A DNA stretch of 64,000 nt from an uncultured delta proteobacterium (GTDB lineage: Bacteria; Myxococcota; Myxococcia; Myxococcales; 40CM-4-68-19), in assembly GCA_903911145.1 (NCBI GenBank), contig CAIWCD010000032.1:2448-66447 (forward strand), in the 5' to 3' direction. The notes beneath the pieces are model-generated. The model worked only from the letters and a program-made list of their open reading frames with translations. It made no database searches and was not told where the DNA came from. Position 1 is the first letter of the stretch; every line of letters begins with the position of its first letter. Made by a program: the position numbers and the translations under genes. Shown here piece after piece: positions 14,371 to 31,268 of this stretch.

Positions 14371-14410
14371 GCCGTGATCTCCGCTCGTCCGCGCCCAGCC
14401 TGGTTCAGAA

Positions 14411-14857: not shown

Positions 14858-15003
14858 GTGCCCCTCCCTGGAAATGGTTTTGGGGCCGCACCCTATGCGA
14901 TCGCGCGAGGAGAACGCGCGTGTAGGAGCATCGGACGGTTAGCGGCTGTTCAGTTGCTTGACGCGCTCCCCATTGTGACCGCTCCTCTGCGCACCGAGGC
15001 GCA

Positions 15004-16860
15004 ATGCACGCTCATCGAATCGTTGCAGTCACTCCGTTCGAACTTCCGGATCTCCGGCTCGCTGCAGCGTTGGGGCGCGCTGGAGCTCTCTCTGTGCTCG
15101 ATCTCGGGCGCGATCGCGAGGCGGCGAAGCTCGCGCTGGCGCAGCTGGCGAAGGAGCCATCGCGCGGCGAGTTCGGTGTGCGGCTCGTCGCCTCCGTGCT
15201 GATCGAACCCGCGGAACTTCCTGCGCGCATCGGGACGGTGATCGTCGCTTCCGCAGAGCAGGTCTCGCGCTTTCGTCCGCGCGCAGTTTTCGTTGAGTGC
15301 TCGACTGTTGCTGCGGCCCGAGCGGCGCAGGCTGCAGGCGCAGACGCGATCATCGCAGTCGGCAGCGAGAGCGCGGGACCGTTTTCCGAGGAGACGGCGT
15401 ACGTCCTCCTGCAGCACCTCGTCGCGGCGCAGATCACGCTCCCGATCTATCTGCGCGGCGGCATCGGCCTGCACACAGCAGCAGCGGCGATCGCGGGTGG
15501 CGCTGCCGGTGTGGTGCTCGATTCGCAGCTCGCGCTCCTCGCGGAGTCGTCGGCCTCGCCAGCGATCCGCCAGCAGATCGGCGCGATGGATGGCAGCGAG
15601 ACGGTGATCGTCGAGGGGCGTCGTCGTCTTGTGCGCCCGAGCGCGCCGGGGCAGCCTGCGCCGGCTGAAGCAGAGGCGCTCGTCGTCGGACAGGACGCAT
15701 CCTTCGCGCGCGCACTCGCCGAGCGTTTTCGCACCGCCGCGAATCTCGTCTCGGGGATCGATCAGGCGATCGACGCGCACCTGCGCCAGTCCTGCGCGCT
15801 CAATCCCCTTGCGCCCGAATCGCGCTGGGCCAAGCAGCACAATCTTCGCTACCCGATCGCCCAGGGTCCGATGACGCGCGTCTCCGATCGCGCCTCGTTC
15901 GCGCTCGCTGTCGCCGAGGGTGGAGCCCTGCCTTTTCTCGCGCTCTCGCTGATGCGCGCGAAGGAGGCGCGGCCGCTGCTCGAGGAGACGCGCGCTCGCC
16001 TCGGCTCGCTGGCGTGGGGCGTGGGCGTGCTCGGATTTGTTCCCGCCGAGCTGCGCGATGAGCAGCTCGCACTGCTCCGGGAGTTCAAGCCGCCCGTCGT
16101 GCTGATCGCTGGCGGCCGCCCGGCACAGGCGCGTCCGCTCGAGGACGCAGGCATCCAGACCTATCTGCACGTGCCGTCGCCGGGCCTGCTCGATCTCTTC
16201 GTCAAGGAGGGCGCGCGCCGCTTTGTGCTCGAGGGGCGCGAGTGCGGCGGCCACGTCGGTCCCCGCTCGAGCTTCGTTCTCTGGGAGAGCGCGATCGAGC
16301 GACTCGCTGCGGATCCGCACGCGGGCGAGATGAGCATTCTCTTCGCCGGTGGAATCCACGACGCGCGCTCGACCGCCATGGTGGCCGCTGCGAGCGCTCC
16401 TCTCGCTGGACGCGGCGCGCGCATCGGCGTCTTGATGGGCACCTCGTATCTCTTCACGCACGAGGCTGTTTCCAGCGGCGCGATCCTCCCCGGCTTCCAA
16501 TCCGAGGCGATCGCCTGCGAAGAGACGGTGCTCCTCGACACAGCTCCCGGCCACTCCACGCGCTGTGCCGAGACCGACTACGTGCGCGCCTTTCGCGCCG
16601 AGCAGACGCGCCTTGCGGCCGAGGGAAAAGATTCGCGCGAGGCCTGGGAAGCGCTCGAGAAGCTCAACCTCGGTCGGCTGCGCATCGCCGCGAAGGGGAT
16701 CGTGCGCGACGGCGAGAAGCTCGAGCTTGTCGGCGAGAGCGAGCAGCGCAAGTCGGGGATGTACATGATGGGGCAGGTCGCGGCGCTGCGTGAGCGCACG
16801 CTTTCGATTCGCGAACTGCACGCCGAAGTCAGCGAAGGCGGCGCGCGCATGCTGCAGGCT
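15004..16860 (+). other. PKS1 domain: two NMO/PfaD-like TIM-barrel enoyl-reductase segments
   Basis: First segment: IVAVTPF...YLRGGIGLHTAAAAIAGGAAGVVLDSQ. Second segment: YPIAQGPMTRVSD...LEGRECGGHVGP...FAGGIHDARS. Confidence 0.7.
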
Positions 16861-19800
16861 GCGCGGGATGCGATTGCGACGCCGAGCGATACAGGCCAGC
16901 GCGCGCCGCGCATTGCCATCGTCGGCATGGCGTCGATCTTTCCGGGCGCACCCGATCTCGAGAGCTTCTGGCGCAACATCGTGACTGGCGCGGATGCGGT
17001 GACCGAGGTTCCGCGCGCGCGCTGGAATCCCGAGGCCTACTTTGATCCCGCGGGCGCAGGTGACAAGACGCCGTCGAAGTGGGGCGGCTTCATTCCCGAG
17101 ATCGCGTTCGATCCTGCTGCCTACGGAATTCCTCCGCGCTCGCTTGCGGCCATCGAGCCGGTGCAGTTGCTCGCACTCGAGGTGTCGCGGCGTGCGCTCG
17201 GTGACGCGGGATATCTCTCTCGCGAATTCGAACGCGAGCGCACGAGCGTCATCTTCGGTGCCGAAGCGGGAACAGATCTCTCTGCCGCATATGGCTTTCG
17301 CGCCAGCTATCGGAGCCTGCTCGGCGAGATGCCTGAGGCGCTCGACCAGACGCTGCCGAAGCTCACGGAAGATTCCTTCGCGGGCATTCTCACCAACGTG
17401 ATCGCGGGCCGGATCGCGAACCGGCTCGACCTTGGTGGCGTGAACTACACGGTCGATGCGGCCTGCGCCTCGAGCCTCGCGGCGGTCGATCTCGCCTGCA
17501 AGGAGCTCGCGGCGGGCGAGACCGACATGGTCGTTTGCGGCGGCGCCGATCTGCACAACGGCATCGCTGACTACCTGATGTTCGCGAGCGTGCACGCGCT
17601 CTCGCCGACGGGCCGCTGCCGCACGTTCGATGCGACCGCCGATGGAATCGCACTCGGCGAAGGGGTCGCGGCGATCGTGCTCAAGCGCGTCGAAGATGCA
17701 GAGCGCGACGGCGATCGGATCTACGCGGTGATCGAAGGCGTGGGCGGCTCGTCGGATGGCAAGAGCCTCGGGCTCACGGCTCCGCGCAAAGAGGGACAGA
17801 CGCGCGCGCTCGAGCGGGCTTATCGGCGTGCAGGCGTTTCGCCGAAGGACGTCGAGCTCGTCGAGGCTCACGGCACCGGCACGGTCGTCGGCGATCGGAC
17901 GGAGCTCGCGACGCTGACGGAGATCTTCGGTGGCGCGGGAGCGGCTCCCGGACTGGTCACGCTCGGTTCGGTGAAGTCGAACATCGGCCACACCAAGTGC
18001 GCGGCGGGTCTCGCTGGTGTCATCAAGTCCGCACTCGCGATCCACCGCCGCGTGCTGCCGCCGACGATCCACCTCAAGCGGCCCAATCCCGGTTGGGACG
18101 CGGAGACGAGCCCGTTCGTGTTTCGCGAGCGCGCAGTCGCGTGGACGAGCGAGCGGCGTCGCGCGGGCGTGAGCGCGTTTGGCTTTGGCGGCACGAATTT
18201 CCACGTCGTCCTCGCGGAGCACGCGGGCAGCGCGGCACCTGAGAGTGGTCTGCACGACTGGCCGTGCGAACTGTTCGTCATTCGTGGCGAGACGCGCGCG
18301 GACGCCGACGCGCTCTGCGCGCAGCTCGCGAGCCTGGCGAAGAGCGGAGCGCCGTGGCGGCTTCGCGATCTCGCGTTCAACGCAAATCGCGCCGGATCAG
18401 GACAGGCGCGGGCCTCCTTCCTCGCTCGCGATCTGAACGAACTCGCCGATCGCGCCACGCGGGCGCAGGGCCTGACGAAGTCGGGCGAGGGAATCTTCGT
18501 CGATGATCTGGCGCCGCTCTCGGGCGGCAAGCTCGCGGTCCTCTTCCCGGGCCAGGGAAGTCAGAAGCCGGGGATGCTCGACGAGCTCTTCGTCGCCTTC
18601 CCGTGGCTGCAGACGACGCTCTCTCGCGCGCAGCGTCTCTCGCAGACCATCTATCCTGGCACCGCGTTTTCGCCCGAGATCCGGGCCGCGCAGAAGGCCG
18701 CCATCACCGACACGCGCGTCGCGCAGCCCGCGCTGGGCATGGTCGATCTCGCCGCCGTGAAACTTCTCGAGGCCTGCGGCGTGCGCGGAGAACTCCTCGC
18801 GGGCCACAGCTATGGCGAACTGGTCGCGCTCTCTGTCGCAGGCGTGTTCGACGACGCAGCGCTGCTCTCCATGTCTCACGCGCGCGCGAAGGCGATCCTC
18901 GATGCAGCCGCCGGCGCACCGGGCACGATGGCCGCAGTGAAGGCAAGCCGCGCGGATGTTGAGCGAGCGCTTGCCGGCGTCGCGAATGTCGTGCTCGCCA
19001 ATCACAACTCTCCCGACCAGATCGTCATCGCCGGACCGGTCGAGGCTGTCGATGAAGCAGTCGCGAAGCTGTCGCTCGCGAAGATCGCCGCCAAGCGCAT
19101 TCCGGTGGCCTGCGCGTTTCACAGCCCGGTCGTCGCCGCCGGTGCCGACGCGTTCCTGCGCGAGCTCGAGAAGGTTTCGTTCAGCGAGCCTTCGCGAGTG
19201 GTCTTCGCCAACACCACCGCCGCTCCCTACCCGCGCGAACCTGCGCAAAGCCGCGCCCAGCTTGCTCGCCAGCTCGCCGAGCCTGTCCGTTTCGCCGAGC
19301 AGATCGAAGCGATGTACGCAGCGGGTGCGCGCATCTTCGTCGAGGCCGGACCAGGCCAGGTGCTCTCTGATCTCGTCCGCAGAAATCTCGGAACGCGGCC
19401 GTTTCTCAGTGTCGCGCTCGATTCAGGCGAAGGCTCGCTGGCGTCGTTGCTCCAATTGCTCGCGCGTCTTGCGACCGCGGGCGTTCCCGTTGAACTCGCG
19501 CCGCTCTTTGCTGGACGCGATGCGGCCCTCTTCGATCTCTTCGCGCCGAAGGCGACCGATTCGCACAGCCCGCCGCTGACGGCCTGGATGGTCAACGGCC
19601 AGACTGCGCGGCCGCTGCGTGGGCCGCTGCCCGATTTCGCGATGAAGCCGCTGCTCGAGCCGATTCGCCTGACGCCAGTTGTTGCTCCCGCGCCCGAGAG
19701 TGGCGATGAGCGGCAGGCGGCAGTGCTCGACTATCTGCGCAACATGCGCGAACTGGTCGCCGGCCAGAAAGAGGTGATGCTGCGTCTGCTCGGCACTGCG

Positions 19801-21684
19801 CCGACGGACGCTTCTGCACAGCCCACGGTGATCAACGCGACCGCGACGCGCACGGAATCATTGGTACTCAAAGCATCTGTCGTGTCGTCCTCTCCTGGCG
19901 CGGATGCGAGCGCACTCGTCGTTCCGCAGCGCCCACCGCTCGAGACGCTGATCGGGATTGTCAGCGAGCGCACCGGCTATCCCGCCGACGTGCTCGATCC
20001 CGACCTCGATCTCGAAGCGGAGCTGGGCGTCGATTCGATCAAGCGCATCGAGATCCTCGGGCTGCTTTCCGAGCGGCTCGGACTCGGGATGGGCCGCGGT
20101 GGCGCGAGCGCAGATCTGATCGAAGAGCTCAGCCAGGTGAAGACGCTGCGCGGGATCGCGCGCTGGCTTGAGGCGCGCGATGCAAACAGCGCGGCGAAGG
20201 CCACCGTGATTGCAGAGACGCCGCCCGCGGAACTGCCGCCCGGGCGCGTCGTCGCCGATGAAATTCCTCTCGAGACCGTGCGGCGCTTCGTGCTCCGAAG
20301 GGCGCCGTTGCCGCCTGCGGTGCCGAACGGATTCAAGCTCGATCAGCGCCGCTTCCTCATCACCGACGACGGACGCGGTGTGGCGGTCGCGCTCGCGAAA
20401 CTGCTCACGCAGCTTGGCGCGGTCGCTGAGGTTGTGGCGAAGCGGCCGCCGAGTGCGGAGAGTCCGGCCGCGATCGATGGCGTGATCCATCTCGGGATGC
20501 TCGCGCCGCACGACGGAGAAGATCCGCGCGCGGCTCTCTTCGAGCTTGCGCGCGCAGCGGCGCTCGGCGGCGCGCAGTGGCTGCTCGCGATCACCGGGCA
20601 GAGCGGCGCTCTCGGGTCGGTGCCGACACACGGTGGAGCCGCGGCACTCTTGAAATCGGTCGCGCGCGAGTGGCCGCAACTGCGCTGCCGCGCCGTCGAT
20701 CTCGATCCGACGCGCTCGCCCGATGCGCTAGCCGCGCTGATTCTCGGCGAGCTGCTTGGTCACGACGATTCGGTGCAGGTCATCCACGACGGCGCAGGTC
20801 GCGCGACGCAGCTTCCGATCGAGGCCGCGCTCGAGGGAGAAGCCGTCGCGCCGTTTGCCAAAGGCGATGTCGTGCTGATCACCGGCGGCGGGCGCGGCAT
20901 CACGGCGGGCGCGGCTGTCGCGATCGCCGAGCGCTATGGCTGCGCGGTCGAGTTGGTCGGTCGCTCGCCTCTGCCTGCTGCCGAGGATTCCGCGCTCGCG
21001 TCCTGCGCCGATGCTCCGGCACTGCGGCGGCATTTCCTCGCTCACCTCGAGGGGGCAACGCCAGCGCGCGTGGAGGCTGCCGTGCAGCGCGCGCTCGCTG
21101 ATCGGCAGATCCGCGCGACGATCTCGGCGATCGCGAAGACGGGCGTGCCGCATCGCTACCACGCGCTCGACGTGCGCGACGCGGCCGCGTTCGGCGCGCT
21201 CATCGACGACATCTATGCGCGCCACGGACACCTCGATGTGGTGATCCACGGCGCAGGCGTGATTGAAGACAAGCTGCTCAAGCACAAGACGCGCGAGTCG
21301 TTCGATCGCGTCTTCGAAACGAAGGTTGCTGGCGCATCGGTGCTCGCGAACAAGCTGCGCGCGGGCTGCCGCGTCGTTTTCTTCTCTTCGATCGCGGGCA
21401 CGTTCGGAAACCGCGGGCAGCTCGACTACGCGGCGGCCAACGAAGCGCTCGATCACCTCGCGCACCACTTTGCTGCGAGCGGACGGCGCGCGGTCTCGGT
21501 CGCGTGGGGGCCCTGGGGCGGGACCGGCATGGTCTCGGCGGAGCTCGAGCGCGAATACGCAAGGCGCGGTGTTGGCCTGATTCCTCCGGCGGCAGGATTC
21601 GATCGGCTCTTCGACGAGCTCGCGCGCGGTCGCGACGCGCAGGTGATCCTGATGTGCGCCACACCCGAGAGGCTCGAGGGGTGA
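15004..21684 (+). CDS. Iterative PUFA/HglE-like type I polyketide synthase, ER(NMO/PfaD-like)-KS-AT-ACP-KR
   Basis: 2226 aa. Motifs: IAQGPMTRVSD (NMO); DAACASSLAAV, EAHGTGTVVGD, KSNIGHTKCAAG (KS); FPGQGSQKPGM, GHSYGE (AT); LGVDSIKRIE (ACP); ITGGGRGIT (KR). Confidence 0.93.
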   Translation: MHAHRIVAVTPFELPDLRLAAALGRAGALSVLDLGRDREAAKLALAQLAKEPSRGEFGVRLVASVLIEPAELPARIGTVIVASAEQVSRFRPRAVFVECSTVAAARAAQAAGADAIIAVGSESAGPFSEETAYVLLQHLVAAQITLPIYLRGGIGLHTAAAAIAGGAAGVVLDSQLALLAESSASPAIRQQIGAMDGSETVIVEGRRRLVRPSAPGQPAPAEAEALVVGQDASFARALAERFRTAANLVSGIDQAIDAHLRQSCALNPLAPESRWAKQHNLRYPIAQGPMTRVSDRASFALAVAEGGALPFLALSLMRAKEARPLLEETRARLGSLAWGVGVLGFVPAELRDEQLALLREFKPPVVLIAGGRPAQARPLEDAGIQTYLHVPSPGLLDLFVKEGARRFVLEGRECGGHVGPRSSFVLWESAIERLAADPHAGEMSILFAGGIHDARSTAMVAAASAPLAGRGARIGVLMGTSYLFTHEAVSSGAILPGFQSEAIACEETVLLDTAPGHSTRCAETDYVRAFRAEQTRLAAEGKDSREAWEALEKLNLGRLRIAAKGIVRDGEKLELVGESEQRKSGMYMMGQVAALRERTLSIRELHAEVSEGGARMLQAARDAIATPSDTGQRAPRIAIVGMASIFPGAPDLESFWRNIVTGADAVTEVPRARWNPEAYFDPAGAGDKTPSKWGGFIPEIAFDPAAYGIPPRSLAAIEPVQLLALEVSRRALGDAGYLSREFERERTSVIFGAEAGTDLSAAYGFRASYRSLLGEMPEALDQTLPKLTEDSFAGILTNVIAGRIANRLDLGGVNYTVDAACASSLAAVDLACKELAAGETDMVVCGGADLHNGIADYLMFASVHALSPTGRCRTFDATADGIALGEGVAAIVLKRVEDAERDGDRIYAVIEGVGGSSDGKSLGLTAPRKEGQTRALERAYRRAGVSPKDVELVEAHGTGTVVGDRTELATLTEIFGGAGAAPGLVTLGSVKSNIGHTKCAAGLAGVIKSALAIHRRVLPPTIHLKRPNPGWDAETSPFVFRERAVAWTSERRRAGVSAFGFGGTNFHVVLAEHAGSAAPESGLHDWPCELFVIRGETRADADALCAQLASLAKSGAPWRLRDLAFNANRAGSGQARASFLARDLNELADRATRAQGLTKSGEGIFVDDLAPLSGGKLAVLFPGQGSQKPGMLDELFVAFPWLQTTLSRAQRLSQTIYPGTAFSPEIRAAQKAAITDTRVAQPALGMVDLAAVKLLEACGVRGELLAGHSYGELVALSVAGVFDDAALLSMSHARAKAILDAAAGAPGTMAAVKASRADVERALAGVANVVLANHNSPDQIVIAGPVEAVDEAVAKLSLAKIAAKRIPVACAFHSPVVAAGADAFLRELEKVSFSEPSRVVFANTTAAPYPREPAQSRAQLARQLAEPVRFAEQIEAMYAAGARIFVEAGPGQVLSDLVRRNLGTRPFLSVALDSGEGSLASLLQLLARLATAGVPVELAPLFAGRDAALFDLFAPKATDSHSPPLTAWMVNGQTARPLRGPLPDFAMKPLLEPIRLTPVVAPAPESGDERQAAVLDYLRNMRELVAGQKEVMLRLLGTAPTDASAQPTVINATATRTESLVLKASVVSSSPGADASALVVPQRPPLETLIGIVSERTGYPADVLDPDLDLEAELGVDSIKRIEILGLLSERLGLGMGRGGASADLIEELSQVKTLRGIARWLEARDANSAAKATVIAETPPAELPPGRVVADEIPLETVRRFVLRRAPLPPAVPNGFKLDQRRFLITDDGRGVAVALAKLLTQLGAVAEVVAKRPPSAESPAAIDGVIHLGMLAPHDGEDPRAALFELARAAALGGAQWLLAITGQSGALGSVPTHGGAAALLKSVAREWPQLRCRAVDLDPTRSPDALAALILGELLGHDDSVQVIHDGAGRATQLPIEAALEGEAVAPFAKGDVVLITGGGRGITAGAAVAIAERYGCAVELVGRSPLPAAEDSALASCADAPALRRHFLAHLEGATPARVEAAVQRALADRQIRATISAIAKTGVPHRYHALDVRDAAAFGALIDDIYARHGHLDVVIHGAGVIEDKLLKHKTRESFDRVFETKVAGASVLANKLRAGCRVVFFSSIAGTFGNRGQLDYAAANEALDHLAHHFAASGRRAVSVAWGPWGGTGMVSAELEREYARRGVGLIPPAAGFDRLFDELARGRDAQVILMCATPERLEG
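16905..18225 (+). other. PKS1 domain: ketosynthase (active-site Cys codon 17463..17465)
   Basis: From RIAIVGMASIFPGAPDLESFWRNI through GFGGTNFHVVLAEH; Cys/His/His triad present. Confidence 0.9.
18530..19380 (+). other. PKS1 domain: acyltransferase
   Basis: LAVLFPGQGSQKPGM, GHSYGELVAL, AFHSP. Confidence 0.85.
19936..20175 (+). other. PKS1 domain: single in-line ACP (Ser codon 20035..20037)
   Basis: DLEAELGVDSIKRIEILGLL. Confidence 0.85.
20330..21650 (+). other. PKS1 domain: ketoreductase (PfaA-type)
   Basis: VVLITGGGRGITAGAA, VIHGAGV, SSIAGTFGNRGQLDYAAAN. Confidence 0.8.
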
Positions 21685-24600
21685 CGGGCGAGAACGATGT
21701 CGCGATCGTCGGGATGGCGTGCCTCTTTCCGGGCGCGGCCGATCTCGCGCAGTTCGCGTCGAACCTGGGCGCGGGTGTCGACGCGATCTCGGAGGTGCCC
21801 GCGGGGCGCTGGGACCCGATCTTCTTCGATCCGGCCTCGCACGCGACCGATCGCTTCTATTGCAAGCGCGGCGGTTTCGTCGACGAAGAGGCCTGGTTCG
21901 ACGCGATCGCGCATGGCGTGATGCCGGTCGCGGCAGCCGCGGCAGAGCCTGACCAGCTGCTCGCGCTCGAGATTGCCCACCGTGCGCTTGTTGATGCGGG
22001 CCTTGCTGGGCGCGACTTTGATCGCTCTCGCGCAGGTGTGATCCTCGGCCGAGGCAGCTATCCGGGCGCGGGCCGGACGCGGCTTGATCAGCACGTGCGC
22101 GGAGCCGAGCAGCTCGTGCGCGCGCTGCGCCGTCTCGCGCCTCATCTCGACGAGAAGGCGCTCGCCGAAGTGAAGCGGGACTTTCAATCGCAGCTTGCGG
22201 CTGCTGGTCCCGACGCGGCGATCGGCCTGGTTCCGAATCTTGCTGCCTCGCGCATCGCGCACCGTCTCGATCTGCGCGGTCCCGCGTGGACCGTCGACGC
22301 CGCCTGCGCGAGTGCGCTCATCGCGGTCGAGCAGGCGACGTGGGCGCTGCGTGCGAAGCGGCTCGATCTGGTGCTCTGTGGCGGCGTGCATTTCTGCCAG
22401 GACGAAGCGTTCTGGAGCGTCTTTTCGCAGCTCGGCGCGCTCAGCCGCGCGCAGTCGATCCGTCCCTTCAGCGCCGCGGCAGACGGCCTCCTGATCGGCG
22501 AAGGTGCAGGCATCGTTGCGCTCGTGCGGCGCGAGGATGCCGAGAAGATGGGGCTGCGAATCTATGCGTTGATTCGCGGTGTCGGCAGCTCGTCGGACGG
22601 TCGCGGCGCGAGCCTGATGAGCCCGGCAGTCGAAGGACAGATCGCAGCGCTGGGCCACGCCTGGCGCGATGCGCAGCTCGATCCGGCGACGGCTGGGATG
22701 GTCGAAGCGCACGGAACCGCGACGCCGACCGGTGATGCTGCCGAACTCGAAACCCTGCGCGTCGTCTTCGGTGAAGCGCGCGGCGTCGAGCGGGCCGCGC
22801 TCGGTTCGGTGAAGTCGATGATCGGCCACACCATGCCGGCGGCTGGCGCGGCGGGACTGATCAAGGCCGCGCTCTCGCTGCACCAGCAAACGCTGCATCC
22901 ATCGTTGCACTGCGAAGAGCCGAACCCCGCGCTCGCGGCCACGCGCTTTCGGGTGCTGTCCAAAGCGGAGCCGTGGATCGGCGCGAACCCGCGGCGCGCG
23001 GGCGTGAGCGCGTTTGGCTTCGGCGGAATCAACGCCCACGTCGTGCTCGAAGAGGCTCCCGCGAGCGCGACTCCACGCGCGAAGATCGCAGCCCGTCCGC
23101 GCGCGACGCAGCATCTCCTTCTGCTCGCTGCGGCCGATCCCCAGGCGCTTTCACGCACGCTCGACGATCTCCCGCAAGGACCGCTGGGCCGCGCTGGGAG
23201 CGGGCCGTGGCGAATCGCGATCGTCGATCCGACGCACGAGCGGATCGCGAAAGCGAAGCAGGTGATCGAGCGCGGCAAGGCCTGGCGCGGCCGGGATGGG
23301 ATCTACTTTGGCGCTGGAGGAAATCTCGCGACGTCTTCTGGCATCGCGTTTCTCTATCCGGGCGTCGACACGGCCCAGAAGCTGCGCCTCGCAGAGGTGG
23401 CCGCGCACTTCTCGATGAGCGTGTCGCCCGATGCGCTCGGTGATTCGATCGAGCACCAGGGGATCGCGCTGGTCGAGGCGGGGCGCGTGCTCACGCACGC
23501 TCTTTCTGAACTCGGCGTGAAGCCGGCGCTCGCGATCGGACATTCGGTTGGCGAGTGGACGGCGATGATCGCCGCAGGAATGCTGCGCGAGGATCAGTTC
23601 GCGCCGTTTCTCGAGCGGGCGCGCAGCGAACGACTCGAGGTGCCGGGCGTCGCCTTTGCCGCGCTGGGCGCAAGCGCGCAGAGGGCCGAGTCGCTGCTCG
23701 AAGGCCTGCTGCACGTCGCGGTCTCGCACGACAACTGCCCGCATCAAGTCATCCTCTGCGGCGTCGACGCTGCCGTCGATGAGGCGCTGCGGCGCGCTCG
23801 TGCAGCCGGTCTTCTCGGACAGAAGCTCCCCTTTCGCTCCGGCTTCCACTCGCCGCTCTTCGCTCCATACTTGAGCGCGCACCGCGAGAGCTTCGCGGCT
23901 CTCGCCCTACAGCCGCCTGCGTTTCCGCTCTGGTCGGCGACGAGCTGCGCGCCGTTTCCGCACGACGCAGAGGCGGTCCGCGAGCTCGCGCTGCGCCACC
24001 TCGTCGAGCCGGTGCGCTTTCGCGAGTTGATACGCAACACCTACGCCGCGGGCGCGCGCATCTTCGTGCAGCTCGGGCCGGGGAGCGCGACGGGCTTTGT
24101 CGAGGACACGCTGCGCGGTGAACCGCATGCGGCGATCTCCGCGTGCGCGCAGGATCGAGGAGGCCTCGAGCAGCTCTGGCGTGTCGCTGCGCTGCTCTTC
24201 GCCGAAGGGGCCGACGTCAACGCGGAGCGTCTGCTTCCTCTCGAGGAGCGCCGCACGCGCGCACGAAGTGGACCGCTTCGGCTCAATCTCGGTGTGCCGT
24301 TGGTCGAGCTGCACGAACGTCTCCAGCCGTCGCCGCGCGAGGTGATGCCGGCAACGAATCCTCTGCGGACCGCTCCTGGCGCGGGCGGGCGCGATCCACT
24401 CTCCGCCGCGTTCCACGATCTGCTCGCCGAGGTCCAGAGCGCTTCGGCCGACGTGGTCGCGAAGCTCGCGGAAGCTCCGCAGGCTCCGCAGGCTCCGCAG
24501 GCTCCGCAGGCTCCGCGCCGCGTCGTGCGCCGTCTCTCGGTGGAGACGCACCCGTGGTTGCTCGATCACACGTTCTTCCGCCAGCCGCCCGGCTGGAAGG

Positions 24601-25985
24601 TCGCGAGCGATCGCCATCCCGTCGTGCCGATGACGACGACGATCAAGATGATGATGGACGAGGCCGCGCTGCTCTCGCCGGGCCGCATTCCCGTCGCGGT
24701 CGAGGACGTCAGTGCCTACCGCTGGCTTGCGGTCGGCGCGCCCACCGACGTCACCTTCGAGTTGACCCCACGCGGCCCCGATCGCGTTCACGTCGCGGCG
24801 CTCGGATACGCCGAGGCGACAATTGTTGTTTCTGACAACTATCCGGCCGCGCCACCTCTTCCTGCTGCGCCGAGCGGCGGGCGCGCATCGACGATCAGCG
24901 CATCCGAGATGTATGCGCAGCGCTGGATGTTCCACGGCCCGCTCTACCAGGGCGTGAAGGCGATCGGCCCGCTGCGAGACGATGGGATCAGCGGCGAGAT
25001 CGTGACTGGCGAATCGCCCGGTGCACTGCTCGACAACGCGGGCCAGCTCTACGGCTTCTGGGTCATGCAGCGCGCGACCGAAGATCGTCTGGCGATGCCG
25101 ACGGGCGTTTCGCGCATGCGCTTCTTTGGACCGCACCCAGAGCCAGGTTCCCGCGTTTCGTGCGACGTGCGCATCCGCACCTTTGATGCGCGCCGGGTGG
25201 TGGCGGACCTGGCGCTCGTCGTTCAGGGCCGCGTCTGGTGCGCGATCGAGGCGTGGGAGGATCGCCGCTTCGATTCCGATGAGCGGCTCTGGAATTCGCT
25301 GATCTGGCCCGAGCGATCAGCTCTTGCGGAGACGATCGCCGAAGTTGCCTTGAGCCGCGGGACCGCGCTGGTCGTGCAGTTCCGCGACACCTACCGCGCG
25401 GCTCCAACGCGTGAGCAGCTCTACCGGCGCTATCTCGGTGAAGCAGAACGCGCCGAGTACGACGCACTCTCTCCGCGCAGCCAGCGCTCGTGGCTCAACG
25501 GACGCATCGCTGCCAAGGACGCCGTGCGCGGGCTGCTCAAACAAGTTGGTGTTCAAAACATCTTCCCGATCGAAGTGCGCATCGAAACCGGGCCTGCGGG
25601 CCGTCCGCTCGCGCGCATCGCGGGTGTTCACGACGTGCGCATCTCGATCTCGCACAAAGGTGATCAGGCGGTGGCGATGGCCGCGTTTGGCGAGGACGTC
25701 GGTGTCGATCTCGAGCAGGTTTCTGCGCGGCCCGCCGGTTTTGTCGAGACCGCGTTTCTTCCGGAGGAGCTCGCGCTCAGGCTCGCCGATGAGGACGCGG
25801 ACGAGTTCATGGCGAGGCTCTGGACCGCCAAGGAAGCGGCCGGGAAGCGACAGGGCACAGGCCTCGCCGGCGATCCGAAGCGCTGGCCGATCACCGATCG
25901 CCGGGGCACGACGCTCTTTTGTCGCGGTCAACAAGTTGAGACTCTTCGCAGCTCAGGCATCGTGATCGGATGGACGCAGGGATGA
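21681..25985 (+). CDS. Type I PKS, KS-AT-DH-PPTase
   Basis: GTG at 21681 overlaps the PKS1 stop (GTGA). Motifs: DAACASALIAV, EAHGTATPTGD, KSMIGHTMPAAG (KS); GHSVGEW (AT); HPWLLDHTFF...PVVPM (DH); ISISHKGDQAVA, VGVDLE, WTAKEAAGK (Sfp-type PPTase). Confidence 0.92.
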   Translation: MTGENDVAIVGMACLFPGAADLAQFASNLGAGVDAISEVPAGRWDPIFFDPASHATDRFYCKRGGFVDEEAWFDAIAHGVMPVAAAAAEPDQLLALEIAHRALVDAGLAGRDFDRSRAGVILGRGSYPGAGRTRLDQHVRGAEQLVRALRRLAPHLDEKALAEVKRDFQSQLAAAGPDAAIGLVPNLAASRIAHRLDLRGPAWTVDAACASALIAVEQATWALRAKRLDLVLCGGVHFCQDEAFWSVFSQLGALSRAQSIRPFSAAADGLLIGEGAGIVALVRREDAEKMGLRIYALIRGVGSSSDGRGASLMSPAVEGQIAALGHAWRDAQLDPATAGMVEAHGTATPTGDAAELETLRVVFGEARGVERAALGSVKSMIGHTMPAAGAAGLIKAALSLHQQTLHPSLHCEEPNPALAATRFRVLSKAEPWIGANPRRAGVSAFGFGGINAHVVLEEAPASATPRAKIAARPRATQHLLLLAAADPQALSRTLDDLPQGPLGRAGSGPWRIAIVDPTHERIAKAKQVIERGKAWRGRDGIYFGAGGNLATSSGIAFLYPGVDTAQKLRLAEVAAHFSMSVSPDALGDSIEHQGIALVEAGRVLTHALSELGVKPALAIGHSVGEWTAMIAAGMLREDQFAPFLERARSERLEVPGVAFAALGASAQRAESLLEGLLHVAVSHDNCPHQVILCGVDAAVDEALRRARAAGLLGQKLPFRSGFHSPLFAPYLSAHRESFAALALQPPAFPLWSATSCAPFPHDAEAVRELALRHLVEPVRFRELIRNTYAAGARIFVQLGPGSATGFVEDTLRGEPHAAISACAQDRGGLEQLWRVAALLFAEGADVNAERLLPLEERRTRARSGPLRLNLGVPLVELHERLQPSPREVMPATNPLRTAPGAGGRDPLSAAFHDLLAEVQSASADVVAKLAEAPQAPQAPQAPQAPRRVVRRLSVETHPWLLDHTFFRQPPGWKVASDRHPVVPMTTTIKMMMDEAALLSPGRIPVAVEDVSAYRWLAVGAPTDVTFELTPRGPDRVHVAALGYAEATIVVSDNYPAAPPLPAAPSGGRASTISASEMYAQRWMFHGPLYQGVKAIGPLRDDGISGEIVTGESPGALLDNAGQLYGFWVMQRATEDRLAMPTGVSRMRFFGPHPEPGSRVSCDVRIRTFDARRVVADLALVVQGRVWCAIEAWEDRRFDSDERLWNSLIWPERSALAETIAEVALSRGTALVVQFRDTYRAAPTREQLYRRYLGEAERAEYDALSPRSQRSWLNGRIAAKDAVRGLLKQVGVQNIFPIEVRIETGPAGRPLARIAGVHDVRISISHKGDQAVAMAAFGEDVGVDLEQVSARPAGFVETAFLPEELALRLADEDADEFMARLWTAKEAAGKRQGTGLAGDPKRWPITDRRGTTLFCRGQQVETLRSSGIVIGWTQG
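21696..23053 (+). other. PKS2 domain: ketosynthase with intact Cys (codon 22305..22307), not a CLF
   Basis: From VAIVGMACLFPGAADL through GFGGINAHVVLEE. Confidence 0.88.
23342..24090 (+). other. PKS2 domain: acyltransferase (Ser codon 23544..23546)
   Basis: IAFLYPGV, GHSVGEWTAM, GFHSPLF, IFVQLGPGS. Confidence 0.8.
24474..24518 (+). repeat. 9-nt tandem repeat (gctccgcag x4 plus a variant copy) encoding the APQAPQAPQAPQAPR interdomain linker
   Basis: Directly visible at 24474 onward, between the AT and DH domains. Confidence 0.9.
24524..25315 (+). other. PKS2 domain: PKS-type dehydratase (catalytic His codon 24567..24569)
   Basis: RRLSVETHPWLLDHTFFRQPPGWKVASDRHPVVPMT. The second hotdog half contains LDNAGQLYGFW. 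Confidence 0.72.
25318..25982 (+). other. PKS2 domain: C-terminal Sfp/EntD-type 4'-phosphopantetheinyl transferase
   Basis: RISISHKGDQAVAMAAFGEDVGVDLEQV ... FMARLWTAKEAAGKRQGTG. Confidence 0.78.
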
Positions 25986-26290
25986 ACGAGGCGCAGGTCG
26001 ACGGCGAGGGGGCCGTGCTTGCGAAAGTTGCGAAGTTGCTCCGCGAGGTCATCGGCGAGGAGTGGGCGACGGACGTCGAGATCACGCGCGAGACTTCGTT
26101 CAACGAAGACCTCGAGCTCGAGAGCATCGAATTCGTCGCGCTTGCCGAGAAGCTGCAGAACGAATTCGGCGCGCGCGTGGACTTCGCGGGCTGGCTCGCA
26201 AACCAGGAGCTCGAGCAGATCATCCGATTGCGCGTAGGCGAAGTCGTGGATTTCATCACCCGATGCCTCTCGTCGAGCGACAAGGCTTAA
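25982..26290 (+). CDS. Discrete acyl carrier protein
   Basis: FNEDLELESIEFVALAEKL (phosphopantetheine Ser context); ~102 aa. The ATG at 25982 overlaps the PKS2 stop (ATGA); 25970 is an alternative start. Confidence 0.8.
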   Translation: MNEAQVDGEGAVLAKVAKLLREVIGEEWATDVEITRETSFNEDLELESIEFVALAEKLQNEFGARVDFAGWLANQELEQIIRLRVGEVVDFITRCLSSSDKA

Positions 26291-27021
26291 GCCTTCACGT
26301 GCAGCTCCTCGGCGCTGGGCCGCCGCTGGTGATGCTGCACGGCCTGCTGGTGGGGAGCGTCGCCACCTGGTGGTTCGGCGCGGCGCCGAAGCTTGCGCGT
26401 GCACATCGCGTGCTGCTCGCGGATCTGCGCGGTCATGGGCTCTCGTCGCACGCGGAGTCCGGCTATGGCCTCGCTTCGCTCGCGGACGATCTCGCGGCGC
26501 TGCTTCCTCTCGCTGGCGAGGGAAGAGTGACGCTCGTCGGCCATTCGTGGGGCGCGCTCGTTGCGCTGCGCTTTGCACTCGCGCACCCAGAGCGCGTCGC
26601 GAAGCTCGTCCTCGTCGAGGCGCCGCTGCCGCCGTCGCGATTGACCGAGCTCGAATCATTTCTGAGTGCGACTCCGGCGGAGCAGCTCGCGGCCGTTCCC
26701 GATGCGGTGCGCGCAATGGCCGCGCGAAGTTCGCGTCGTGGCAGCAAGACGCTCGCGCAGGTCGCGCGCCTGGTGACGACGACGACGCTGCTCGAGGATC
26801 TGCGGCGCGAACCGGATTTCGCGGAGAGCGAACTCGCGCGGCTCTCCTGCGAGACGCTGCTGATCTATGGTGATCGCTCAAGCTGTCTTCCCTCTGGCGA
26901 GAGGCTCGCGCGCACGCTGCCGCATGCCGAGTTGATCACGCTTCCCGGAGGACACTTCCTGCCTGCTGAGCAGGCGAGTGCGCTCGCGTCGCTGCTCGAG
27001 GAGCGCCTGTGTCTGACGTGA
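26263..27021 (+). CDS. Alpha/beta-fold hydrolase (candidate thioesterase/release enzyme)
   Basis: LVMLHGLLVGS, RGHGLS, nucleophile elbow GHSWGA, C-terminal GGHFLP. The ATG at 26263 overlaps the ACP gene by 28 nt. Confidence 0.82.
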   Translation: MPLVERQGLSLHVQLLGAGPPLVMLHGLLVGSVATWWFGAAPKLARAHRVLLADLRGHGLSSHAESGYGLASLADDLAALLPLAGEGRVTLVGHSWGALVALRFALAHPERVAKLVLVEAPLPPSRLTELESFLSATPAEQLAAVPDAVRAMAARSSRRGSKTLAQVARLVTTTTLLEDLRREPDFAESELARLSCETLLIYGDRSSCLPSGERLARTLPHAELITLPGGHFLPAEQASALASLLEERLCLT

Positions 27022-27815
27022 TCGTTCGCGGCGCGCGCTTCCACGTCCAGCGGCTTGGCGTGGCGACCGCGTTGCCACCCGTGCTGTTCCTGCACGGGCT
27101 CATCATGGACAACCTCTCGAGTTGGTACTTCACAGTCGCGCACGCGGCTTCGCGAGAGCGCGAAGCGATCCTCTACGATCTGCGCGGCCATGGTCTCTCC
27201 GAGCGGACGCGAACGGGATACGGCCTCTCGGATCAAGTTGCCGATCTGGCCGCGCTCCTCGACGCGCTTGAGGTTCGCGAACCGGTGATGCTCGTCGGCA
27301 ACAGCTTTGGCGGACTGCTCGCGCTTGCGTTTGCGGCCGCGCATCCGCCCCGCGTGGCTGCGCTCGCGCTCGTCGATGGGCATCTCGGCGACGACGGCTT
27401 CGCCGCGCAGATGTCTGCGACGTTGCGCCTCGAGGGAGACGCACGCGATCAGCGGATCGCTTCGTCGTTCGCGAACTGGCTCGGACGCCACAGCGAGCGC
27501 AAGCGCAACCGGCTTGCCGAGCATGCGCGCGCGCTGGTTCACGACACTGCGCTGGTCGACGAGTTGGCGGCGACAGATGCTTTGAGTGCAAACGATCTTG
27601 CCCGCATCACGGTGCCGATTCTTGCGCTCTATGGAGAGACGAGCGATCTGCGTGCGCGCGGCGAAGCCTTGCTGGGCGCGGTCGCCAACGCGCGCGTCGA
27701 GATCCTTCCCGGCTGCACGCACTCGATTCTCTGGGAGGCGACAGACGCCGTGCGCGCGCGAATTCTCGCATTCCTCGCTGCTCCTGCGACCGGTTCGAAC
27801 GGACTGGCGCGATGA
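27009..27815 (+). CDS. Alpha/beta-fold hydrolase, second copy
   Basis: VLFLHGLIMDN, RGHGLS, nucleophile elbow GNSFGG, C-terminal GCTHSILWE. GTG start overlaps the upstream gene by 13 nt. Confidence 0.82.
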   Translation: MSDVIVRGARFHVQRLGVATALPPVLFLHGLIMDNLSSWYFTVAHAASREREAILYDLRGHGLSERTRTGYGLSDQVADLAALLDALEVREPVMLVGNSFGGLLALAFAAAHPPRVAALALVDGHLGDDGFAAQMSATLRLEGDARDQRIASSFANWLGRHSERKRNRLAEHARALVHDTALVDELAATDALSANDLARITVPILALYGETSDLRARGEALLGAVANARVEILPGCTHSILWEATDAVRARILAFLAAPATGSNGLAR

Positions 27816-28984
27816 GCCGTTTCCTCTTCGTCGTGCCGCCGCTCGTCGGTCATCTCAATCCGACCATCGCCGTCGCGCGAGAGCTTTCGCGTCGCGGCCA
27901 CGAGGTCGCCTGGGCCGGTCACGCGGATATCTGCGGCCCGCGTCTGCCGCCAGGGAGCACCCTCTTTTCGCTCGGCGATGCCTCGCGCAACGAGTTCTTT
28001 CGTCCCGCGCTTGAACGTTCGCAGCGCGTGCGCGGATTGGAGAGTCTGCAGTTTCTCTGGGAGTCGCTGCTCGTGCCGCTCGCTCGCGCCACGCGGCCGC
28101 GCATCACCGAGATCATCGCGACGTATGCGCCCGACGTGCTCGTCGTCGATCAGCAGGCGCTCGGTGGTGCGCTCGCAGCGCGGGCGAGCGGGCTGCCATG
28201 GGCCACGTTCGCGACGACTTCCGCAGGCGTGACCGATCCACTCGCTGCGCTGCCGAAGGTGAAGTCGTGGGTCGATGCGCAGCTCGCCGAGCTCGAGCGC
28301 GAAGCGGGCCTGACGCGCGCGGCCGCTCCTGGTGCGGCTGATCTCTCGCCTCGCTGCGCGATCATCTTCTCCACCGACGCGCTGGTCGGTCCGCTCGAGC
28401 AGTTCCCGCCGCACTTCCATTTCGTCGGCCCCTCGATCTCCGATCGCCCCGACGCGACGCCGTTTCCGTTCGAGCAGCTCGCGCCGGCTCAGCGACGCGT
28501 GCTCATCTCGCTCGGCACCGTCAGCCCCGATCGCGCCGGTGATTTCTACGCGACCTGCGTGAGTGCGCTCGCTGGCGGTCCGTGGCAGGCGATCGTCGTC
28601 GCGCCTGACGGACGCATTCCCAATCCTCCGGCGAACTTCATCGTGCGCGCGCGCGTGCCGCAGCTGGCTCTGCTGCCGCACTGCCACGCCGTCATCTGTC
28701 ACGCCGGACACAACACGACGGTGGAAGCGCTCGCGCACGGACTGCCTCTGGTGGTTGCGCCGATCCGCGATGACCAGCCGGTGATCGCCGAGCAGGTCGT
28801 CCGCGCACAGTGCGGCGTGCGCGTGAAGTTCGGTCGACTGACTCCGGCGGCGCTGCGTGAAGCTCTCGTGCGCGTGCTCGATGAGCCCTCGTTCGCGCAG
28901 GCTGCGGCGCGCGTGCGCGCGTCGTTCGAGGCTGCCGGTGGCGCGACCACCGCCGCGAAGCATCTCGAGGGGCTTGCCGCGTGA
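27812..28984 (+). CDS. GT1-family (MGT/UDP-glycosyltransferase-like) glycosyltransferase, paralogue of 8370..9548
   Basis: FVVPPLVGHLNPT; donor motif CHAGHNTTVEALAHGLPLVVAPIRDDQP. ATGA overlap with the upstream gene. Confidence 0.87.
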   Translation: MSRFLFVVPPLVGHLNPTIAVARELSRRGHEVAWAGHADICGPRLPPGSTLFSLGDASRNEFFRPALERSQRVRGLESLQFLWESLLVPLARATRPRITEIIATYAPDVLVVDQQALGGALAARASGLPWATFATTSAGVTDPLAALPKVKSWVDAQLAELEREAGLTRAAAPGAADLSPRCAIIFSTDALVGPLEQFPPHFHFVGPSISDRPDATPFPFEQLAPAQRRVLISLGTVSPDRAGDFYATCVSALAGGPWQAIVVAPDGRIPNPPANFIVRARVPQLALLPHCHAVICHAGHNTTVEALAHGLPLVVAPIRDDQPVIAEQVVRAQCGVRVKFGRLTPAALREALVRVLDEPSFAQAAARVRASFEAAGGATTAAKHLEGLAA

Positions 28985-29895
28985 CCACCCCCGCGACGCG
29001 CCGCGCGCAGAAGGCACCAGCCTCGTCAGAACGCGCGGACCTCGAGCCGACCGCGCTCTACACCGCGGGAGTCTGGGCCTGGGCGCGACTTGCATGCGCG
29101 GAGCTCTTTGACCACGCCGAGTCACGCAACGTCTTCGGCGTCGTGAATTTCGCGCTCTCGCTTGCTGGCATCTTTCGCCTGCGTGCGCCGAGCCTGCGCC
29201 ACTCACTCGTGCAGAGACACGTGATGATCGACCGGTTGCTCGACGAGAGCGGCTGCGCGCAGATTCTCGAGCTGGCCGCCGGTCTCTCGCCACGCGGCGC
29301 ACGCGTCTCGGCAAATCCAGACGTCGTCTACGTCGAGGTCGATCGCAGCACATTGTTCGAGCGCAAGCGCGCGCTGCTTCGGCGCAGCGAGCAGGGCAGA
29401 GTGGTTCTCGCGCGGCCGAACCTCCGTTTCGTCGCGGGCGATCTCACCGAACTCGAGCTCGACTCCGTCGCGCCGCCAGCGTCCGGTCCGCTCTGCGTGA
29501 TCGCCGAAGGTCTCTGCATGTACCTCGATGCGGATTCACTGCAGCGCCTTGCAGCGCAGGTGCATGCACTGCTCCGCGCGCGCGGAGGGTCCTTCCTCTT
29601 CGATCTCGTTCCTGCGATCGAGCAGCCGAAGTCCGGTCTTCTTGGTCGCGCGCTCGGATGGCTCATGCGCATCGTCACGCGTGGCGGCGCGTTCGTTCGT
29701 GATGAGCGCAAGCGAAACGACATCGCGGCGGCGTTGCGCGCAGTCGGATTCTCCAGTGTCGATCTCTACGAGCCGAAGAGTGCGCCAGTCGGCTGGCAGC
29801 TTCCGCATCTCGATCGCCGCACGCAGCAACTCGTCTTTGCCGCGCACGTCGCGCTTCCCGCGCTTGTCTTGGCGACGCCAGGAGTTCCTCAGTGA
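28981..29895 (+). CDS. Class I SAM-dependent methyltransferase, LCMT/TcmP-like (O-/carboxyl-methyltransferase type)
   Basis: ILELAAGLSPRG (compare the LGAGLDTR motif) and VIAEGLCMYL (compare EGLLMYL). GTGA overlap with the upstream gene. Confidence 0.72.
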   Translation: MTTPATRRAQKAPASSERADLEPTALYTAGVWAWARLACAELFDHAESRNVFGVVNFALSLAGIFRLRAPSLRHSLVQRHVMIDRLLDESGCAQILELAAGLSPRGARVSANPDVVYVEVDRSTLFERKRALLRRSEQGRVVLARPNLRFVAGDLTELELDSVAPPASGPLCVIAEGLCMYLDADSLQRLAAQVHALLRARGGSFLFDLVPAIEQPKSGLLGRALGWLMRIVTRGGAFVRDERKRNDIAAALRAVGFSSVDLYEPKSAPVGWQLPHLDRRTQQLVFAAHVALPALVLATPGVPQ

Positions 29896-31181
29896 GCAGC
29901 TCTCGTCCACGACACGCCTTCGTGATTCGCGATCCGCAACTGATCTCGCCGCTCGGCATGACGGCGGCGCAGAGCTGGTTTTCTGCGGGCACGCTCTCAA
30001 GCGAGATGCGCCGCGTGCTCGAATCGTGTGGGCTCGCCGTGGAGACCGTCGATTCGCTCGATGATGCGCTCGCCCGCGCTGGGCGCAGTCCGGCGGGCGC
30101 GCTCGTCACCTACGACTCGGTCGCGTTTTCGAGATCGCTGGTACTCAAACTACTTGCCGCAGCAGCCGACGATGCCCGGCCTGCACTGATCGCGGCGCTG
30201 CCGCAAGCGCTCGCGACGCAGGTGCTCGCGCATCTGGATGGAATGGCCGCGACGACGATCGACGGCAAGCCAGCGTTCACCGCGCCGCTCTGGATCATCC
30301 GCGCCGGCGGAACCACGCAGGACGCGCCCGCGGTGCTGCTGCCGTTCGCTGAACAGGAGTGGAAGCTCCCGACGCCGCCGGGGATGCTCGGCCGCAGCGA
30401 AGAACCGTTCGGCGCGACCGACACGTATCTGGTGCGCGTCGATCACTGGGCGCATGTGCTGCGCGTGAATCTCGCGGTGCTGGTTGCGCACTGGTTCGCG
30501 CGCTGGCAGACGCCGAGCGGAAAGCTCTGGTTCCTCTGGCGTGCGCTGCTCGGCTTTCCCTGGAGCGGCGGCCGCCTCGCGAGAAGTCTGCGCGTCATTC
30601 ATCGCAAGGCGAAGGTCCATCACACAGCGCACGTCGAACTGTCGGTCGTCGAGGAGGGCGCGGAGATTGGCGCGCATGCGATCGTGAAGAACTCGCACAT
30701 CGGTCGCAATGCGCGCATCGACGACAACGCGATCGTCAACGCCTGCGTGCTCGGCGAAGGCGCGAGCGTCGCTTCTGCTTCGTCGATTTTCAGTTGCGTG
30801 CTCTTTCCCGGCGCGTTCGCGGCGCAGCAGAAAATGCAGTTCTCCGTGCTCGGTCCGAACTCGGTCGCGTTCACCGGTTCCTACTTCTACGACCTCAACT
30901 TCGAGCGGAACATTCGCGTCGTCCACCGCGGCCGCGTCGTCGATGCGGGCACTCGTTTCCTCTCGGTCTGCCTCGGCCCGTGGGCGCGCGTCGCCGGCGG
31001 AGTCTGGGTCGCCAGCGGGCGGGAGATCCCCGCGCATGCGCTCCTGGTGCAGCCGCCGACGCTCGTCGCGCAGAGGATCGATGAAGCCTTGGCGGGCACG
31101 CGCATGACGGCCGTGCGCGATGGCGTGCTCGTGGACGTCGGGCCGCTGCCCGCATCCCCGGTGCCGGACACATCACGCTGA
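29892..31181 (+). CDS. Left-handed beta-helix (hexapeptide-repeat) protein, GlmU-C-terminal/acyl- or nucleotidyl-transferase-like
   Basis: VHHTAHVELSVVEEGAEIGAHAIVKNSHIGRNARIDDNAIVNACVLGEGASV shows hexapeptide periodicity. GTGA overlap with the upstream gene. The N-terminal ~230 aa is unassigned. Confidence 0.6.
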   Translation: MSSSRPRHAFVIRDPQLISPLGMTAAQSWFSAGTLSSEMRRVLESCGLAVETVDSLDDALARAGRSPAGALVTYDSVAFSRSLVLKLLAAAADDARPALIAALPQALATQVLAHLDGMAATTIDGKPAFTAPLWIIRAGGTTQDAPAVLLPFAEQEWKLPTPPGMLGRSEEPFGATDTYLVRVDHWAHVLRVNLAVLVAHWFARWQTPSGKLWFLWRALLGFPWSGGRLARSLRVIHRKAKVHHTAHVELSVVEEGAEIGAHAIVKNSHIGRNARIDDNAIVNACVLGEGASVASASSIFSCVLFPGAFAAQQKMQFSVLGPNSVAFTGSYFYDLNFERNIRVVHRGRVVDAGTRFLSVCLGPWARVAGGVWVASGREIPAHALLVQPPTLVAQRIDEALAGTRMTAVRDGVLVDVGPLPASPVPDTSR

Positions 31182-31268
31182 CAACTGTCTCCCGCCGTTC
31201 TTCCGATGCCCCCGCGCGCGATTCATGCGAGCGATCTGCTCTGGCTCTCCTCGAGGTTCACCGTGCGC

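Follow-up and report, generated by a model that had tools for sequence, protein, structure and literature searches.

A Pfa-like two-protein synthase operon with conserved carrier protein, hydrolase and glycosyltransferase genes in an uncultured myxobacterium

What does an iterative synthase make when its genes run without a break into those of a carrier protein, hydrolases and a glycosyltransferase? The question is raised by an operon in a 64,000-nucleotide stretch of contig CAIWCD010000032.1 from an uncultured delta proteobacterium of the Myxococcales; "the window" denotes that whole stretch. According to the listing of open reading frames (ORFs), eight co-directional plus-strand ORFs fill positions 15004-31181 (Table 1), the first two encoding the large polyketide synthase (PKS) proteins PKS1 and PKS2. 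The existence of the operon is confirmed and its genes are intact. The family to which it belongs is widespread and has been catalogued but is chemically uncharacterised; the operon adds lineage-specific accessory genes. In our view its two large proteins probably form an iterative type I fatty acid synthase (FAS)/PKS of the "secondary lipid synthase" kind, dedicated to a glycosylated long-chain lipid. The most likely product is a long-chain lipid, saturated or hydroxylated, that bears a sugar and possibly also a methyl group.

Synthase layout and catalytic motifs

The domain orders given in the original prediction for all operon proteins were borne out by Pfam and NCBIfam. Both ketosynthase (KS) domains retain Cys-His-His, KS1 within DAACASS, HGTGT and GHT and KS2 within DAACASA, HGTAT and GHT. 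KS2, having kept these motifs, is a genuine KS, not a chain-length factor (CLF), in agreement with the earlier statement that both domains keep the catalytic Cys and that no CLF is present. The acyltransferase (AT) motifs are GHSYGE..CAFHS in AT1 and GHSVGE..GFHS in AT2, and the enoylreductase (ER) carries the motif YPIAQGPMTRVSD. The dehydratase (DH) of PKS2 gave a weak PKS-type match (PF14765, PS-DH, in its homologues) and contains HPWLLDH. The Sfp-type phosphopantetheinyl transferase (PPTase) that follows has the motifs GVDLE, WTAKEA and ISISH, and its homologues match PF01648. A single phosphopantetheine-binding stretch was found in PKS1, so that the predicted presence of only one in-line acyl carrier protein (ACP) was also correct.

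The best NCBIfam model for both proteins is PfaA (TIGR02813), with 904.6 bits for PKS1 and 444.2 bits for PKS2, both below its cut-off of 1010.1. The proposal of an iterative PfaA-like synthase is supported by this best match, though the score falls short of the family threshold. A ranking of solved structures for KS-AT, led by trans-AT PKS and CurL, does not separate Pfa from modular PKS.

The layout has a precedent. Shulse and Allen (2011; PMC3098273) sorted pfa-like "secondary lipid synthase" clusters into Types A-T. Type M, with members in Frankia, Actinosynnema mirum, Renibacterium salmoninarum and Streptomyces avermitilis, has an uncharacterised product; Types M-T have in common the PPTase motif P1b' hShxH, as opposed to (F/S)NxSH, and cluster together as a single branch in the KS tree (PMC3098273). 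In a 2026 paper (PMC13291983), the Renibacterium (Type M) synthase is described as a fused pfaDA plus pfaBC-PPTase, still uncharacterised. The same features are found in the operon. In PKS1 the ER is fused N-terminally to KS-AT-ACP-KR (KR, ketoreductase) with a single ACP, in PKS2 a KS-AT-DH protein has an integrated PPTase, and the ISISH motif of that PPTase fits hShxH. The synthase layout thus appears to match Type M, an assignment made by domain layout and PPTase motif, not by the KS tree. Since the fused pfaDA and pfaBC-PPTase architecture is seen here, the two-protein layout is of a catalogued kind.

The locus had been described as mixing the logic of polyunsaturated fatty acid (PUFA)/HglE synthases with that of enediyne PKSs (PKSE). 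This view is not sustained, because the same two-protein layout and its partners recur in at least six phyla and correspond to Type M. What looks like a mixture is therefore better read as the layout normally found in a branch of Pfa-like synthases that is separate and widespread. The claim of an undescribed pathway survives in part: no report of a product was found, but the architecture had already been catalogued as Type M. We found no literature assigning a product to the gene set, an absence that is not proof, as most subscription journals lay outside the search. No characterised cluster member was found in the literature on hglE-KS glycolipids, Frankia PUFA-like clusters or Streptomyces PUFA-synthase glycosides. 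The "EPA" (eicosapentaenoic acid) cluster SCO0124-0129 of S. coelicolor was considered as an equivalent and rejected; it is Type L, with a separate pfaD and a KS-CLF-DH2-AT protein (PMC3098273).

The five-gene cassette and its accessory genes

Searching with the PKS2 protein returned thousands of homologues at E<=1e-20. Of the best 120, almost every one spans the full length at about 46-58% identity, and almost every one has the KS-AT-DH-PPTase set of Pfam domains seen in PKS2. When one genome per GTDB species was scanned with PKS2, at least 574 relatives emerged, from which the best 80 loci were kept. The window proteins were compared with these loci by tblastn, and the locus ORFs by a representative-locus search. 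The 80 loci come from Myxococcales metagenome-assembled genomes (MAGs), Sulfidibacter (Acidobacteriota), Gemmatimonadota, Burkholderiales, Cellvibrionales, Paraperlucidibaca, Aquimarina (Bacteroidota), Planctomycetota, many Streptomyces, Amycolatopsis and Kitasatospora. Wherever the contig is long enough, the order PKS1-PKS2-ACP-hydrolase-glycosyltransferase (GT) is kept in essentially every locus, and the loci span at least six phyla. PKS1 is 44-54% identical across most of its length in more than 60 loci of other phyla, and its degenerate N-terminal segment is itself 32-51% identical in relatives of several phyla (both by tblastn). The genes flanking the operon in the window are not conserved in the related loci.

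A further copy of the cassette lies on a linear plasmid of Streptomyces sp. NBC_01243 (locus L086 in Table 1), with hypothetical genes upstream and with IS3 and IS6 transposases close downstream; its PGAP names are generic. From the synteny across loci and this plasmid copy near insertion sequence (IS) elements, we conclude that the conserved functional unit is a five-gene cassette (PKS1-PKS2-ACP-hydrolase-GT), which appears to move horizontally. The window operon consists of this cassette together with a second hydrolase, a methyltransferase of the leucine carboxyl methyltransferase (LCM) type and a left-handed beta-helix (LbH) protein. These three are additions relative to Type M, the LbH protein being specific to the cassette, and the conserved downstream ACP-hydrolase-GT genes are not discussed in the papers on Type M. 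The link of synthase with hydrolase and GT that had been proposed for the operon is supported, and a glycolipid product is reasonable because nearly all related loci have the genes for ACP, hydrolase and GT after those of the synthase. A synthase, an ACP, a Ser-His hydrolase and a family 1 GT (GT1) form a fixed unit in at least six phyla and on a plasmid, which strongly suggests a conserved glycolipid. This conservation also defines a minimal five-gene unit for expression. The window locus is one of hundreds of equivalent loci and is therefore valued only as an example, compact, intact and well defined, for heterologous expression.

The discrete ACP has an unusual attachment motif, L-E-S-I-[D/E] instead of the usual D-S-L, whose Ser is invariant in 80/80 homologues. 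In several relatives the PF00550 score of this protein is weak or absent. Locus L004, from a MAG, has about 4.3 kb of extra sequence between PKS2 and ACP (14066-18390), including an ORF of 457 amino acids without a Pfam match, and an arylsulfotransferase-like ORF after its GT.

Both predicted hydrolase motifs, GHSWGA in ABH1 and GNSFGG in ABH2, are present. Two hydrolase paralogues occur in the window, in L081 and L082, and in 11 other loci, one of which is an Acidimicrobiales MAG while the rest are non-actinobacterial. Other Actinobacteria, Bacteroidota and some Gammaproteobacteria have a single hydrolase of the GNS[FY]G (ABH2) type. This distribution points to ABH2 as the universally conserved hydrolase of the cassette and to ABH1 as an extra paralogue, mainly of non-actinobacterial loci. 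Among 80 ABH2 homologues, the nucleophile is Ser in 76 and Cys in 4, and the His is invariant (80/80). The GT is present in every locus whose contig reaches that far. Among proteins of solved structure, its nearest relatives are the Bacillus UDP-glucosyltransferase YjiC and OleD/OleI, and it is closest to UDP-glucosyltransferases that have lipophilic aglycones as acceptors.

The methyltransferase had been taken as possibly acting in the pathway. Comparison of the loci indicates that it and the LbH protein are both lineage-specific additions to the core. Among the loci examined, a homologue of the methyltransferase occurs only in L001, L004, L012, L038, L043, L081, L084 and L085, and in L004 and L012 it stands upstream of PKS1. 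No relative of solved structure was found for it by sequence. The LCM-type family includes the carboxyl methyltransferases TcmP and LCMT, and methyl-esterification by such an enzyme is plausible. The LbH protein has 54 detectable homologues, none of them functionally named. They lie directly 3' of the cassette GT or methyltransferase in the 4/4 places examined (L081, L083, L084 and L085), sometimes duplicated, and the family appears to occur only in the context of the cassette. Three more homologues come from contigs that agree in length with contigs bearing PKS2 matches. Residues D75, H185 and R228 of the LbH protein are invariant. The methyltransferase is an optional accessory and the LbH protein a cassette-specific one.

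The AlphaFold2 model of the LbH protein (pLDDT 91.8) has two domains, a Rossmann-like NTP-transferase domain and a C-terminal left-handed beta-helix. Its top Foldseek matches are ST0452, GlmU, GMPPA/B and AGPase, with a probability of 1.0, a TM score of about 0.5 and an identity of about 10-12%. No Pfam NTP_transferase match was obtained. The modelled fold suggests that the protein is sugar-related.

Related loci have other genes beside the cassette, including ABC, MFS or HlyD exporters, short-chain dehydrogenases/reductases (SDRs), methyltransferases and sulfotransferases. These neighbouring exporters and tailoring genes fit an exported, variably tailored lipid, and the methyltransferase, sulfotransferase, SDR and exporter additions can serve as markers of lineage-specific variants. 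Sulfotransfer_3 and Methyltransf_23 genes next to the cassette in L083, L084 and L085 suggest sulfated or further methylated variants; they were not found among the window ORFs scanned. One Sulfotransfer_3 product in the LbH-bearing relatives is a two-domain protein of 714-718 amino acids.

Proposed pathway and competing explanations

We propose the following sequence of events. The PPTase built into PKS2 would activate both the in-line and the discrete ACP. To judge from the domains present, AT1 would load malonyl units, and the two KS, the KR, the DH and the ER would iteratively build a long chain. This chain should be largely saturated, because of the analogy with ArsA/ArsD and because there is no cis-forming FabA-type DH and no CLF; by the same analogy, one or more hydroxyls would probably be retained. 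The chain may then be passed to or through the discrete ACP. The conservation of ABH2 suggests that this Ser-His enzyme frees the chain from the carrier protein, by hydrolysis or transesterification, and ABH1 may be a clade-specific helper. The homology and strict synteny of the GT point to the addition of a hexose, probably from UDP-glucose, to the lipid. More speculatively, the LCM-type methyltransferase might methylate a carboxylate or hydroxyl in this lineage, and the GlmU-fold LbH protein might modify the sugar or help to supply it. The sequences themselves show the gene and domain content, the intact catalytic motifs and the synteny across phyla; chain length, hydroxylation pattern, release chemistry and sugar identity are inferred.

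The synthase is a sister arrangement to ArsA/ArsD of Azotobacter vinelandii, a Type P system. There too, two FAS-like proteins work iteratively, with only one ACP and with a PPTase in the second protein, and the chains made are long, saturated and C22-C26 in length. In the ars system, two type III PKS genes stand between the two FAS/PKS genes, and the phenolic lipids formed have a C22-C26 chain (PMC3098273). The domain order that Miyanaga et al. reportedly described for ArsA/ArsD in 2008 would agree with that of the operon. There the type III PKSs take the acyl chain directly to give alkylresorcinols and alkylpyrones; the operon has instead the ACP, hydrolases and GT. It contains no type III PKS, all of its ORFs being accounted for and PKS1 and PKS2 overlapping by 4 nt.

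Several points weigh against the glycolipid pathway. Every chemical step in it is inferred, because no member of the family has a known product. The glycosyl acceptor, a hydroxyl or a carboxyl, is undefined, since the operon has neither a thioester reductase nor an obvious hydroxylase, and the operon holds no transporter gene. The families matched by ABH1 and ABH2 are only generic ones (esterase, PcaD and MenH). The nucleotide-binding signature G-x-G-T-R is absent from the LbH protein, whose N-terminus reads HAFVIRDPQLISPLG and whose family consensus is RHAFVVRDxAxIPPLG.

A more specific product can be considered for the cassette. Glucolipsin, fattiviracin and cycloviracin are actinobacterial macrocyclic dilactones of glucosylated C17-C33 3-hydroxy fatty acids joined by esters, some with O-methyl sugars, and they fit the minimal enzyme set. 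If the five-gene cassette makes lipids of this type, the hydrolase would act as an esterifying enzyme, possibly by dimerising macrolactonisation, and the myxobacterial operon would make a methylated, LbH-modified variant; the LbH protein would then represent a new family of tailoring enzymes. The rhamnolipid logic, in which RhlA (an alpha/beta-hydrolase acyltransferase) acts on ACP-bound 3-hydroxyacyl chains and is joined by RhlB (a GT1), also fits the cassette. The top matches of the hydrolases showed no sequence link to RhlA. In the literature we found no gene cluster to which the dilactones have been assigned, and the loci examined came from species other than the dilactone producers. We treat the dilactones as a lead only, and consider that they are doubtful as the actual product.

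Alternatively, the synthase could be a type I FAS that supplies (very) long-chain fatty acids for membranes or storage, with the GT and hydrolases loosely related to it or unrelated. The full KR-DH-ER set would allow this, and the Type M pathway has been regarded as perhaps the only complete fatty acid pathway of Renibacterium (Shulse and Allen, PMC3098273). However, the ACP, hydrolase and GT genes share one overlapping operon with the synthase and are conserved with it across phyla, and on one Streptomyces plasmid the cassette is an accessory, with IS elements close downstream. Such a role in general lipid supply is improbable.

The chain might also be released by decarboxylation, yielding a terminal olefin or hydrocarbon as with the sulfotransferase and thioesterase (TE) of CurM or olefin synthase, and be glycosylated elsewhere along its length; two observations suggest this. 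The best PDB match of ABH1 is the CurM thioesterase (3qit), and Sulfotransfer_3 genes adjoin the cassette in L083, L084 and L085. The 3qit match, however, is confined to residues 20-138, and generic esterases match at least as well; this lead was judged non-specific. Sulfotransferases are missing from the operon, from the window ORFs scanned and from most loci, and ABH1 is missing from actinobacterial and Bacteroidota cassettes. Release of this kind is thus a distant prospect.

The remaining two explanations start from resemblances drawn in the original prediction. A true PUFA synthase, or an orthologue of the heterocyst glycolipid (Hgl) synthase, would agree with PfaA as the best NCBIfam match, with the PfaD-type ER and with a linked GT like HglT in cyanobacteria. 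The hgl island of the Nostocales likewise has a Pfa-like iterative synthase whose chain is glucosylated by a glycosyltransferase, giving a hydroxylated product for a specialised envelope. In hgl, however, HglC is a KS-CLF-AT protein, the ER and reductase genes are separate, the ACPs are in tandem and Hgd exporters are present, none of which is found in the operon. The hallmarks of PUFA synthases (tandem ACPs, KS-CLF and a FabA-type DH) are likewise absent, and no second KS-like domain fits into PKS2. Pfam detected no thioester reductase or NAD-binding release domain in the operon, the PfaA score is under the family cut-off, and the P1b' motif of the PPTase is not that of PUFA systems. Membership in the Hgl group therefore fails, and a synthase of either kind is hardly credible.

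Equally hard to credit is a PKSE relative making a conjugated polyene, since the iterative KS-AT...DH-PPTase order and C-terminal Sfp-type PPTase that PKS2 has in common with SgcE and CalE8 are a superficial likeness: a PKSE carries its ACP and KR in one polypeptide and lacks an ER, the operon synthase consists of two proteins that include an ER and have KS-AT twice, and SgcE (from an S. globisporus plasmid) is 31.6% identical over KS-AT only (residues 7-846). The operon has no hot-dog TE or other enediyne cassette genes and its flanks are housekeeping genes; in a non-systematic look through the 60 best matches of solved structure, no PKSE was noticed. Of the earlier interpretation, the iterative Pfa-like synthase and its link to hydrolase and GT are supported, and the hybrid architecture and the likeness to Hgl and PKSE are not.

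Operon boundaries and neighbouring genes

The earlier description of the operon stands in its domain orders, motifs, overlaps and Cys-keeping KS domains, and fails in its gene count. Eight genes with seven junctions lie within 15004-31181, in place of the nine that had been counted; a ninth plus-strand ORF lies outside these coordinates. As predicted, every junction overlaps (7/7), by GTGA, ATGA, 28 nt, 13 nt, ATGA, GTGA and GTGA in gene order. The same overlaps appear in the gene calls of L081, the closest relative (PKS2 76% identical). Such start/stop overlaps are ordinary for operons in a genome of 67% G+C (the window has about 67%) and are unremarkable alone.

Table 1. Features of the operon, of neighbouring window genes and of selected related loci
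Feature	Position	Strand	Details
PKS1	15004-21684	+	2226 aa; NMO-like, PfaD/FabK-type ER, KS, AT, ACP, KR; fused "pfaDA"
PKS1 residues 1-270	15004-15813	+	degenerate second NMO/TIM-barrel-like segment before ER; Pfam NMO in two stretches
ER (NMO/FabK/PfaD type)	15841-16848	+	residues about 280-615; PF03060 best stretch 309-608, TIGR03151 FabK 280-615
KS1-AT1	16909-19389	+	PKS1 residues 636-1462; PF00109, PF02801, PF00698
In-line ACP	19945-20088	+	residues 1648-1695; PF00550, single stretch; Ser in GVDSIK
KR	20872-21519	+	residues 1957-2172; PF08659; TGGGRGIT and YAAAN
PKS2	21681-25985	+	1434 aa; KS, AT, PKS-type DH, Sfp-type PPTase
Discrete ACP	25982-26290	+	102 aa; PF00550 26.5 bits; ATG at 25970 an alternative start
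ABH1, alpha/beta-hydrolase	26263-27021	+	252 aa; GHSWG
ABH2, alpha/beta-hydrolase	27009-27815	+	268 aa; GNSFG
GT1/MGT-family glycosyltransferase	27812-28984	+	390 aa; TIGR01426 186 bits
LCM/TIGR00027-type S-adenosylmethionine (SAM) methyltransferase	28981-29895	+	304 aa; PF04072
LbH protein	29892-31181	+	429 aa; nucleotidyltransferase-like N-domain and left-handed beta-helix; hexapeptide repeat
Possible ninth gene	31206-32387	+	lipoprotein-like; signal peptide ending ...LAAPGC; weak DUF4215 cysteine-rich-repeat match
Radical-SAM protein	4334-5566	+	upstream gene group
Asparagine-synthase-like amidotransferase	6636-8369	+	upstream gene group
Second MGT-type GT1	8370-9548	+	upstream gene group; 29% identical to operon GT
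PIG-L-type deacetylase domain	about 11270-11660, in ORF ending 12088	+	upstream gene group
L086	NZ_CP108492.1, 114850-129824		869-kb linear plasmid of Streptomyces sp. NBC_01243; PKS1-PKS2-ACP-ABH-GT-class I SAM methyltransferase
Sulfotransfer_3 genes and ~617 aa Methyltransf_23 protein beside cassette	L083 11266-12342; L084 15966-19189; L085 13394-16608

The possible ninth gene starts 25 nt 3' of the operon and converges on an Hsp70-like gene. A plus-strand gene of similar size at the same position is found only in L081; the window ORF is an uncertain member of the operon. On the 5' side, a malic enzyme/PTA gene and a glyoxalase gene are both on the minus strand; on the 3' side lie the minus-strand Hsp70-like gene and PurU. 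These flanking genes mark clear operon boundaries. An Rfam scan of the window gave no match.

A second group of co-directional plus-strand genes lies upstream, at 4334-12088, and the minus-strand malic enzyme/PTA gene stands between it and the operon. This group may constitute a separate glycoside pathway. A PIG-L gene is also seen in L083, with a GT4 gene, downstream of the cassette. Elsewhere in the window, 36417-37364 (plus strand) encodes an FHA-GGDEF diguanylate cyclase. After it come genes for a Methyltransf_32 protein, a HAD hydrolase and a member of the beta-lactamase family, and the opposite strand has a gene for a GMC oxidoreductase; these genes look unrelated to the operon.

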